Source: a virus (taxonomy: Duplodnaviria > Heunggongvirae > Uroviricota > Caudoviricetes). Taken from it: a stretch of 11,676 nucleotides of DNA. The position numbers are program-made. This document shows positions 9,001 to 11,676 of this stretch, piece after piece (position 1 is the first letter of the stretch; every line of letters begins with the position of its first letter). The stretch spans positions 1 through 11,676 of the IMG/VR virus record IMGVR_UViG_2778261356_000005. One strand, 5' to 3'.

Positions 9001-11676
9001 CCATGCATTAGCAACAGCTTCAAATGTCTGTAGATTTTTTAGTGACATCTCAATTTTACGATTTTTCTTCTCCGTCACTGGATCAACTCCACGTGCAATC
9101 ATTCGCCGAAGTTCATCACGTACTTCCCGTGCTTCCGCGAGTGAGAATTCAGGAAAACGTCCTATCGTGTATGTCTGCCGTTTCTTCGTTATCGGATGGC
9201 TATAACGGAAACGCCACACTTTCCCACCGGCTTTACTCACATTCAGCAATAAACCGAACCCATCATAAACGGCATAGTCCTTTTCACGTGGTTTCATCCC
9301 CTTAACTTCAGTCACGGTTAATGGCTTTACCGACATCTATCGCCCTCATTTTTTAGTCCGTCATGTAGTCCATTCAAGCCAATAACAAGCGATAAACTAA
9401 CTCATTATCAAGCAAAGAGAGGAAACTCATAAAATCACAACTCATTGAAAAGACTATGAAACGACACCAGAACATACAAACAGGTAAGAAATGTACCCTA
9501 CATCCAAAAACTTGCTATTCTGGAATTTCGGGGGGTTCCGGTGATACTGCCATCCGCCGCTGCCCGTTCGCCTTCCCGCAGCCAGATCCCCTGGTTATTC
9601 AGTTCACGCTTCTGTTCCGGAGCAATCAGGCCGCGGCAGTGCGGACACATCAGGCGGGCCGCCTGCCCGGCAGCCACAAAATCAGGGTTATTCCGGTAAC
9701 CGGTCATGTTATCCATCACCGGCTGAAAATATTCCCCGCAGTGCGGACACGGCCAGTACCACCGGCGGCGGTCTCCCCGGTTATACAGTGACAGGATCCC
9801 CGTTGTTGGCGGTGCCTCATGTGCGCCACCACAACGCCATTTGGTGTCAGTGATATCCCGCCCCGGTGAACTCTCGACCAGGATCATCCCCGAGGACATA
9901 AAGGTGGTGGTACGCTTTGAGGCCAGCGTGAAGGCATCCCCTTCCCCGTCCACGTTTTCAGGGAAACGGTCATAATCCGTCAGCGCCACACGACGGTAAT
10001 CCGAAGAGGAAAATACAGTGATCGACGGCCAGCCAATCTTCAGGAAGGAGCCGTCAAGAAACATTTTATCGTGGACGTTGTTGTCATTACGGGAAGGACT
10101 GAGGCGCTTGCTGACCTCCGGACTGTGGCGAAACGTCCTGGAAAGACGCGTTCTGGAATGCTCACGCGCCTTCGTCTCAGTCATCTGCACCACCAGCATA
10201 TCCGCCGGATCACAGATGATGCCGTACACAATCCAGCCATCAATCAGCCCTTCGGTTTTCCCGGTTCGCGCAGGTCCCACAAACACCACCGCGTCATATT
10301 CACGGGCTGATAATGTATTAATGGGGTCAATCATATAGGGCGTCAGCGATGACTCCCACGGACCGGAAGTATTGGCTCCCCGTGGAACCCGCATATAACG
10401 CCTGATGGCTTCCGCTACTGGTAACCGGCTGGGTGGGCGAAACAGCGAGGCCACTTCGCGCCAGATATCGGATGCGCGGCTATGGCTCTCGTTCACCTGA
10501 TTCACATATCGGCCTCATCACAGCAGTCAATGACTGCCTTTTCCAGTGTGTCGCGGATCTCATCAACCACAATCTGTACTTCATTCAGTTGTGATGCGGT
10601 CCACCCCCTGTCCCTCTCCAGCCGATCAGGCCAGGTTTCCAGTACCTGAACTATCGCTTTCACCACGACAGAAAAGGACCGCCTGACATCACTGACTGGC
10701 ACAAGCTGAACAGTTTCATGCTGAAATTTAAGACGCTCGCGCTCGGACTGATACCATGCCTTCCGATCATGTGGGTTCATCTCTTCATCTTCGGAAGCCG
10801 GTGGTTTTTCCAGCAACGAAATAATCAAATCCGTCAGGAGATACAGTTTTTTCTTTTCATTACTGCCTGGTGCAAGAGGAACATCCGCCATTCTGGCGGC
10901 AACAGTCTGCCGGTGCAGACCTGAAAGGGCTGCCAGTTGATTAATATTTAACTTCATATTTTTCAGCTCGCCGTCCATTCACATCCCTCCACATAAACCG
11001 CTGAACAAAAGTGGCTCTTTTTTTTGTAAAGAAATGCCGCCATATAAAGATGTCGAACAAAAATCAACCACAACCATCATCTTTTTAATGCTAAACACAT
11101 TAAAAACAACAAGTTACACTAATGATGATGACGATAAAATCACAAAAATGCGCCTTTTTCCGCGCCGCCCGCCCCGTGTTCAGGCCCACCCCACCAGGAG
11201 GACCCGCAAAATGATAATGGTTATCATTTGTAATGTAGTCCGGTTTCTTCCACCATCGCACCGGACCAGCGACTATGAGGGGACAACGCCGCGCTCCGTT
11301 AACGCGGTAAACCCCGGTGTGTATCGTTTTTGATTATCCCCGCACACTCGCGCAGAGGAGTCTCCCTGTCGGGCTGCGGTCTCTGTTAATGAGGGAATAC
11401 AGCGACGATACAGCGCATCAGCAAAACTTAGTTCAGGCACTGAGTGCGGATATAGTCCTGTGCCCCTTCCAGCTGCTTCTGCATTGTCATCAACCGTTCT
11501 CTGAGGATGAAATAATCCCGTTCAGCGGTGTCTGCCAGTCGGGGGCCGGTTGCATTATCCACGCCGGAGGTGCCGGTGGCTTCACGCACGGTACCGGAGC
11601 AGGTGGCGTTGATCCGCAGGCGCTTACGACCAGCGGCAACATCAGCACGCAGAGTTTCATTTTCAGCTCTCGCATC

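Follow-up and report, generated by a model that had tools for sequence, protein, structure and literature searches.

Lambda-like phages are defined by 12-nt 5' ends resembling those of lambda, and Gifsy-1 is included among them (Feiss et al. 2015, PMC4669245). In their cohesive-end sites (cos), cosQ and base pairs 1-6 of the cohesive ends are conserved, whereas base pairs 7-12 vary freely (Feiss et al. 2015, PMC4669245). The names R3, R2, R1 and I1 for the elements of lambda cosB are taken from the same paper, which also describes that cosB and the N-terminal half of the small terminase subunit (TerS) differ between lambda and phage 21. Furthermore, copying of cos by helper-dependent satellites is known for phage-inducible chromosomal islands (PICIs; PMC6739421, PMC9026076, PMC10111431), and a helper-embedded class of these (HE-PICIs) was described by Tommasini, Mageeney and Williams (2023, PMC10111431). 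Here, a stretch of 11,676 nt from a tailed-phage record (IMG/VR IMGVR_UViG_2778261356_000005, positions 1 to 11,676), called the window in the following, was examined for such a site. Judged from its sequence, the segment of about 11229..11040 on the minus strand is very probably the cos site of a lambda-like Shiga toxin 2 (Stx2) prophage, i.e. the signal at which packaging would start and end. It is an ordinary and expected feature, an unannotated and unmapped example of a well-known type.

A preliminary description had read 11000-11211 as a lambda-like cosQ-cosN-cosB array. This reading was borne out by the position of the site, its homology to lambda, the architecture of cosB, the type of terminase, the co-variation with TerS and the genome ends of relatives. 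The boundaries need correction: the block conserved with lambda reaches about 11229, and 11000-11040 lies past the last recognisable cosB element. Position 11211 is the exact point where the similarity to two cos copies in an embedded satellite begins.

Results

The cos layout was found on the minus strand between the stop of Rz (11428) and the start of TerS (10978), and its reading direction is towards the head genes. From the predicted nick (11175/11174) to the ATG of TerS 196 bp were counted, compared with 190 bp in lambda. The earlier placement about 200 bp upstream of Nu1 was right in distance, but the gene belongs to the DUF1441 family of TerS and is at most a remote homologue of Nu1. 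Stx-converting lambdoid phages match the 777 bases from 11676 to 10900 at 96-99.6% identity, and their annotation of this part gives endopeptidase (Rz) and then the small terminase. The intact relative Stx2_499 (locus L001) has, in this order, holin, endolysin, Rz, a gap of 450 bp, terS, terL (2124 bp), portal, a ClpP/capsid fusion and tails. Compared with Escherichia coli RM10466, the window showed 99.97% identity overall, with one 3-nt indel as the sole difference. Of 5426 complete E. coli genomes, 699 have the cos site, and none of these annotates it.

The lambda sequence used for comparison was the cos junction assembled from the ends of NC_001416. In the best local alignment, a check that had been proposed together with the first reading, the block ATGATAAcCATTATCAtTTTgCGGGTCCT gave 26 identities in 29 positions (ATGATAACCATTATCATTTTGCGGGTCCT vs ATGATAATCATTATCACTTTACGGGTCCT), at an offset from the nick that equals that of lambda within 1 nt. 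The alignment score was 43 against 19.3 ± 2.5 in dinucleotide shuffles, and none of 1000 shuffles reached it (z about 9.5). A softer global alignment also paired ACGGGGCGG (9/9), as well as GTAACTTGTTGTTTTTA with lambda ATAACTTAATGTTTTTA, and TAACTT..TGTTTTTA aligned with the lambda stretch between R3 and R2. Two instances of the composite GGGTCCT-N20-26-ACGGGGCGG were counted in the window, one in the prophage cos and one in satellite copy 1, where 0 are expected (200 dinucleotide shuffles); ACGGGGCGG alone also has two occurrences against 0.10 expected. As both the named motifs and the alignment exceed the shuffles, the cos observation is real and far beyond chance.

The GGGTCC cosQ-like core and the ACG-GGGCGG nick-region motif named at first were both found, the former as GGGTCCT and the latter as ACGGGGCGG (11177..11169, minus strand). 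From the start of the cosQ heptamer to the predicted nick there are 31 nt (heptamer included; lambda 30), and the spacer between cosQ and cosN has 24 nt. The likeness of cosN to lambda holds for its left half, in which CG 5' of the nick is followed by GGGCGG, and all nine positions agree; the right half differs from that of lambda. Here the G-rich core GGGCGGGCGG (11174..11165) is followed by a conserved right flank, CGCGG, from 11164. Along the minus strand the continuation reads ACG^GGGCGGGCGG^CGCGGAAAAAGGCGCATTTTT, with ^ for a presumed cut. The predicted cohesive ends thus fit the pattern of Feiss et al., with base pairs 1-6 kept and 7-12 variable. Lambda and mEp213 share the 9-bp palindrome upstream of cosQ (Table 1), cdtI and Fels-1 have part of it, and mEp460 and both satellite copies lack it. 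The palindrome lies outside the minimal unit copied by the satellite.

An intergenic block upstream of the first head gene, with TTTACA-like and hairpin motifs nearby, could also be conserved mainly as a transcriptional signal, such as a late-operon promoter, a terminator or an antitermination element. This explanation is highly improbable. A promoter and terminator scan of the coding strand yielded nothing above shuffled expectation, the conserved parts are exactly cosQ and cosN of lambda, and the linear genome records of relatives break exactly at cos. As the scan was no better than the shuffles, we rejected the idea that the region acts as a promoter or terminator.

Table 1 Features of the cos region, the terminase genes and the embedded satellite (window coordinates; ^ marks presumed cuts)
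Feature	Coordinates	Strand	Remarks
Rz (spanin/endopeptidase), 3' part	11428..11676	-	Stop codon 11430..11428; phage and genome records of 96-99.6% identity annotate it as Rz, endopeptidase or lysis protein
Perfect 9-bp palindrome AAATGATAA-CCA-TTATCATTT	11209..11229	-	Repeat finder; just upstream of cosQ; within the 26/29 lambda block (lambda GATGATAATCATTATCAC)
cosQ heptamer GGGTCCT	11199..11205	-	7/7 vs lambda cosQ; putative packaging-termination element
cosN region ACG^GGGCGGGCGG^CGCGGAAAAAGG	11153..11177	-	Predicted top-strand nick 11175/11174; lambda-equivalent
R3-like repeat CGTCATCATCATT	11121..11133	-	Putative TerS-binding; bp 42-54 from predicted nick; CRWCATCWT pattern
IHF-like core TAACTTGTTGTTT (I1 equivalent)	11104..11116	-	Pairs with TAACTTAATGTTT of lambda (74-86) in the alignment
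Perfect 9-bp inverted repeat TTTTTAATG-N7-CATTAAAAA	11082..11106	-	Repeat finder; overlaps A/T-rich side of IHF-like site
R2-like repeat CATCATCTTT	11075..11084	+	Inverted relative to R3-like
R1-like repeat CGACATCTTTAT	11044..11055	-	Orientation as R3-like
TerS, 158 aa, DUF1441 family	10502..10978	-	PF07278 E 7.9e-49; phrog_141 'terminase small subunit' E 8e-65; phrog_57 E 5e-10
terL, 5' third (GpA_ATPase domain)	9496..10505	-	Truncated by satellite; PF05876 E 3e-82; 12-bp att core 9507..9496
Satellite integrase	9336..8098
Satellite AlpA-like and BRO-N genes
Satellite primase	4674..2920
Satellite ClpP-capsid fusion	1948..59
Satellite cos copy 1	2390..2572	-	cosQ 2566..2560; ACGGGGCGG 2538..2530; 11-nt core GGGCGGAGGGG; IHF-like core 2474..2462; class II cosB
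Satellite cos copy 2, left part	1..34	-	cosQ 28..22; 100% identical; cut by window end; complete in L002 27645-27830

At the level of sequence patterns, cosB has the tripartite layout of lambda, with R3-like and R1-like repeats in one orientation, an inverted R2-like repeat and a site like that of integration host factor (IHF) between R3 and R2. The same layout was found in Fels-1, mEp213/LLS and the class II phages described below. Independently, the repeat finder returned the R2-like (11075-11084) and R3-like (11121-11130) repeats as an inverted pair, 90% complementary and with 36 nt between the arms. An equivalent of the R3-like repeat, CATCATCAT, is present in Fels-1 and mEp213/LLS; GATGATG of the R2-like repeat is conserved in class I, Fels-1 and satellite copy 2, and TTCGACATCTTT of the R1-like repeat is the same in every class I phage cos site as well as in satellite copy 2. 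Versions of the IHF site with the full consensus (TTGATA) occupy the equivalent place in class II, mEp460 and cdtI. The cosB-like stretch 'CGTCAT...GTTTTTAAT' of the preliminary description exists in sequence, CGTCAT continuing with CATCATT in the R3-like repeat and GTTTTTAAT continuing with G (GTTTTTAATG, 11107..11098, minus strand), but it comprises two elements, the R3-like repeat and the core of the IHF-like site. As a (CAT)n tract, the R3-like repeat varies in length, with three CAT units in the window and four in RM10466, Stx2_499 and most relatives; the distance from cosN to all that lies downstream of R3 is thereby changed by 3 bp. For the 9-bp inverted repeat beside the IHF-like site only partial conservation was detected among class I relatives.

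The co-variation of cosB with TerS became apparent from two classes of phages. Class I is the type of the window; in class II (CP-1639, 1720a-02, ASU11) TerS is 77% identical to that of the window, and both classes share its cosQ-cosN exactly. Between the classes, all 53 nt that reach from cosQ to the end of the right flank, 330-331 of 332 aa of the N-terminal TerL fragment (99.4-99.7%) and TerS residues 92-158 (100%) are identical. In contrast, cosB shows about 56% identity, and the differences in TerS lie within residues ~3-91, densest at 21-70. The swapped block, cosB together with TerS residues ~1-91, was delimited with window 10502-11150 and loci L020, L026 and L085. Thus, cosB and the DNA-binding half of TerS appear to have been exchanged as one module, with cosQ-cosN staying with TerL. 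Such a pattern would be expected of a cosB that serves as the target of TerS, and it parallels lambda and phage 21, in which cosQ-cosN is likewise identical, TerL near-identical, and cosB and the N-terminal domain of TerS different. Unlike that pair, both classes described here occur in Stx-type prophages with a DUF1441 TerS, and their difference in specificity is a prediction.

Genome ends of relatives were examined with 58 phage records containing a homologous TerS (tblastn), three of which open at the position equivalent to cos; a second tblastn at E<=10 gave no further TerS relatives. In the record of phage LLS, positions 1-12 are labelled by the depositor as '5' extended single-strand cohesive site GGGCGGCGCGCT' (12 nt), after which CGCGGGAAACGG follows. 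The record of phage cdtI starts with GGGCGGGAGCGT^CGCGGAAAAAGG and ends with ...GGGTCCTTCCGGTGGGGTGGCCTGCCACG (...CCACG); because of this exact placement, its ends are taken as experimental. The record of Hafnia phage yong2 starts with CGCGGGAAACGG (CGCGGG). These ends place the left nick of the TerS/TerL family of the window after (C)ACG and the right nick before CGCGG, as in lambda. Two other candidates were discarded. The start of mEp460_4F5 (LR595868), which lies 5 nt upstream of where the nick is expected, with 3 core nucleotides of mEp460 missing, was judged to be an assembly break, and IMG/VR contig L077, ending 1 nt before the expected nick, was rejected because draft contigs often break at repeats common to several prophages.

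One oddity of the prophage cos is its cutting core, which is two bases shorter than in relatives. A scan of IMG/VR for GGGTCCTYCYGGTGGGGTGG yielded 125 parsable cos sites. Wherever the spacer from cosQ to the nick has 29 or 30 nt (mEp460, cdtI, LLS/mEp213, lambda-type), the interval from ACG^ to ^CGCGG is 12 nt. In the lineage of the window, with its 31-nt spacer, the interval is 10 (GGGCGGGCGG) or 11 nt (GGGCGGGCGGG, GGGCGGGTCGG) and never 12 beside a TerS gene. The total from cosQ to CGCGG amounts to 41-42 in phage sites beside a TerS gene and to 43 in one island copy (L073). Variants with 10- and 11-nt cores occur beside TerS proteins of at least 95% identity and TerL proteins of 98-99.7% identity. 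In Gifsy-2 (L134 290-330), which has a divergent cosQ-like GGTACTC as in Fels-1, 14 nt lie between ACG and CGCGGG (GGTGGCTTCGGGCT); the flank interval is thus not constant in the wider DUF1441-TerS family.

A genuine cos with ends unlike those of lambda would account for these intervals: cuts at ACG^ and ^CGCGG would leave 10-nt ends (11-nt in sister variants), or a 12-nt stagger would have one non-canonical flank (GGGCGGGCGGCG, or CGGGGCGGGCGG 2 nt to the left). Besides the strict separation of core lengths by spacer and the 14 nt of Gifsy-2, this is favoured by the near-constant sum, as though ACGGGGCGG had moved by 2 nt while the outer elements stayed in place, and by the 11-nt variants, in which a 12-nt stagger and two CG flanks cannot both hold. 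However, 12-nt ends are found in all mapped or annotated relatives (PMC4669245 included), and TerL is of the same GpA family, whose dimeric nuclease would be expected from lambda to fix the stagger. Moreover, the 12-nt cut GGGCGGGCGGCG^CGG keeps CG at both flanks, and the standard model therefore survives for the sequence of the window. The two-fold symmetry of cosN, inspected by eye, did not discriminate between the 10-nt and the 12-nt model. We regard non-lambda ends as doubtful, though worth keeping in mind. The related proposal that the core slid and shrank in the Stx-prophage lineage (spacer +2 nt, core -2/-1), so that the terminase would leave overhangs of less than 12 nt or use a non-canonical flank, is slightly less probable still.

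The terL gene next to TerS is interrupted. In RM10466, too, a 5' and a 3' part of terL are separated by an element of ~10.3 kb with genes for integrase, an AlpA-like protein, BRO-N, primase and a ClpP-capsid fusion. By mapping the breakpoint against the intact gene (L001) and the split gene (L002), an element of ~10.35 kb was located in window 1-9507 (on to L002 28530), inserted in codon ~333 of a terL of the GpA type. Phage sequence extends from window 11676 down to 9496, including the 12-bp att duplication (9507..9496). In L002 the halves of terL lie at 17175-18179 and 28526-29656, and the C-terminal part past the island is annotated as gpA endonuclease subunit, in agreement with the GpA family. 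The cos would therefore be usable only after excision of the satellite or with a terminase provided in trans.

A terL split by a 10.3-kb insertion, in a group of prophages of Shiga toxin-producing E. coli (STEC) of which many are defective (PMC2669165), raises the question of a decayed relic, a cos-like sequence without function. We consider this improbable. The insertion is precise and integrase-mediated, with the att duplication and an intact downstream part of terL, and for this class of satellites excision on induction was shown (PMC10111431). The cos is 98.7% identical over 221 bp to records of Stx2a-converting phages with intact terminase genes, one of which differs by a single CAT repeat, and 100% identical over 196 bp to one complete E. 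coli genome. Furthermore, all cos subsites are intact, and DNA of the related Sakai prophage Sp15 is packaged (PMC2669165).

According to gene order, Pfam matches and att duplication, the satellite is a HE-PICI, co-oriented inside one of the helper's late genes. In the accessible part of the text and supplements of PMC10111431 the string 'GpA' is absent, A-gene sites occur only in TerL of the Terminase_1 type, and strain RM10466 is not found; the att site of the satellite may therefore lie outside the 14 sites of that paper. Similar arrangements of a satellite in terL were observed in many STEC genomes, O157:H7 included.

The suggestion that the prophage cos serves as reference for recognising island copies proved correct, and both copies exist (2572..2484 and 34..1). 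They are co-oriented, 2538 bp apart, and flank an open reading frame (ORF) of 75 aa and the ClpP-capsid fusion gene. Copy 1 (L002 25113-25300) shows 90% identity over 91 bp (2572..2484) to the prophage cos and has a consensus IHF core, and the complete copy 2 in L002 carries the class I cosB of the helper with an identical cosN core. In both, the homology starts a few bases upstream of cosQ, at TTTTGCGGGTCCT, in copy 2 right after a hairpin and T-run and in copy 1 after a shorter G+C-rich run and T-run. The pair recurs in four more loci (L022, L027, L073, L133). The left end of the window falls 3 nt before the predicted nick of copy 2 (...GAAC^ACG^GGG), probably a coincidence of window cutting. 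Where terS or rpp would be expected, small ORFs follow the copies, one of 93 aa after copy 2 (L002 27879-28160) and one of 75 aa after copy 1 (window 1945-2172). They gave no Pfam match and PHROG matches only of unknown function (phrog_1561, phrog_4934), and Pfam and PHROG profile searches identified no Rpp homologue in the satellite. That a satellite dependent on the packaging of its helper copied exactly cosQ-cosN-cosB supports the cos reading and agrees with the known behaviour of PICIs.

Discussion

Several results weigh against the identification of the segment as a lambda-like cos site. All 409 phage records with the cos region are prophage-derived or not opened at cos, and none of them gives ends for the lineage of the window. 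The 10-nt interval (11 nt in some near-identical phages) may be at odds with at least one rule of lambda, either the 12-nt stagger or the CG at each nick flank, and a literature search for the core GGGCGGGCGG together with 'cohesive' gave no match. In cosB, the pattern CRWCATCWT matched the window seven times against 1.07 expected, four of the seven within 11047-11133 (87 bp) in the order forward, inverted, forward, but it was derived post hoc from the same sites it counts and the count is illustrative. The loosened IHF pattern YAANNNNTTGWTW matched twice, in the prophage cos and at the same offset in satellite copy 1; this count is not above chance (75 of 200 shuffles), and the placement is the informative part. 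As terL is disrupted, the prophage copy may be silent at present. Finally, TerS is not a member of Pfam Phage_Nu1, its sole Pfam match being DUF1441, and no match was detected to lambda Nu1 by BLASTP or to PDB sequences by phmmer.

Hence, the homology of TerS and Nu1 had to rest on profiles. Lambda Nu1 matches the profiles phrog_57 (1e-76) and phrog_141 (6e-8), TerS shows the reciprocal pattern, and both match over nearly their full length. TerS is therefore probably a remote homologue of Nu1. In the AlphaFold model of TerS (mean predicted local distance difference test, pLDDT, 78), long helices come after an N-terminal unit of the order strand-helix-helix-strand-helix. The top Foldseek matches were 7lw0_A (a 56-residue chain of a viral packaging motor, prob 0.97) and 6hn7_B (a chain of an Rpp-TerS complex, prob 0.93), then regulators of the MerR type, all weak with E ~0.14. 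These matches to winged helix-turn-helix domains of small terminases, Rpp and MerR give marginal support for a Nu1-like DNA-binding fold in the model. We conclude that TerS would work like Nu1, though it is not in the Nu1 family of Pfam.

Against these points stand the observed homology to lambda, the architecture, the co-variation and the genome ends of relatives, and the identification of the segment as a cos site is retained. For protein binding, nick positions and overhang length in this lineage, we infer the following steps by homology to lambda. The DUF1441-type small subunit would bind the three CATC-rich repeats of cosB, of which the second is inverted. IHF would bend the DNA at TAACTTGTTGTTT, so that R3 and R2 could be bound together. 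The bound complex would place the large subunit of the GpA type on cosN, where staggered nicks around GGGCGGGCGG would generate 5' G-rich cohesive ends. Packaging would then proceed towards the terminase genes, and at the next cos the cosQ heptamer, together with cosN, would trigger the terminating cut.

The likeness to lambda comprises the location between Rz and the small terminase gene, a distance of ~190-196 bp to the ATG, an identical cosQ, the upstream palindrome, the left half CG^GGGCGG and a large subunit of the GpA family. An A/T-rich core of the IHF type likewise lies between R3-like and inverted R2-like repeats, with the R1-like repeat after them. In contrast, the flank interval is 10 nt in the window and 12 nt in lambda. 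The R repeats of the window are CATC-rich (CRWCATCWT), whereas those of lambda read CGTTTCC(T/G)TTCT (in the lambda sequence at 53-68 plus, 105-120 minus and 155-170 plus). The distance from the R2-like to the R1-like repeat is ~30 bp instead of 50 bp, and TerS belongs to DUF1441 instead of Phage_Nu1. With the DUF1441-TerS phages (LLS/mEp213, cdtI, mEp460, Fels-1, and Gifsy-1 according to Feiss et al. 2015) the window shares the families of TerS and TerL, a CATCAT-type R3, the IHF core and the backbone cosQ...ACG^GGGCGG...^CGCGG(A/G)AA...GGC(T/G)..TTTTT. It differs from them in the combination of spacer and core, 31 + 10 in place of a 29-30-nt cosQ spacer and a 12-nt core, as well as in the sequences of cosB and the DNA-binding halves of TerS (36-59% TerS identity).

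Like the PICIs of Gram-negative bacteria (EcCICFT073 type) and the HE-PICIs, the satellite has copies of the helper cosQ-cosN with the same spacing and neither terS nor terL. In contrast to these, its copies keep a complete cosB of the phage type with the IHF core instead of a single Rpp-specific R3, and there are two of them with different types of cosB. This pair suggests that terminases of either specificity could package the satellite, with no need for an adaptor like Rpp. With cores of different length (10 nt GGGCGGGCGG in copy 2, 11 nt GGGCGGAGGGG in copy 1), the ends of a molecule begun at one copy and finished at the other would not be complementary.

The compensated change in the length of cosN is the non-routine point of the prophage cos. 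If it goes along with shortened overhangs or a non-canonical cut, a terminase of the gpA type would measure the placement of the nicks from outer elements (cosQ or I2-cosB) and not from cosN itself. Furthermore, the two classes of cosB and TerS would represent a natural swap of packaging specificity among Shiga-toxin phages, similar to that of lambda and phage 21. The cos site is an unannotated but very common landmark, which helps to open the genomes of Stx prophages correctly, to predict which terminase can package which prophages and satellites, and to spot cos copies in satellites. In general, the lambda paradigm of cosQ, an asymmetric cosN and a tripartite cosB with IHF would thereby be extended to small terminases of the DUF1441 type.

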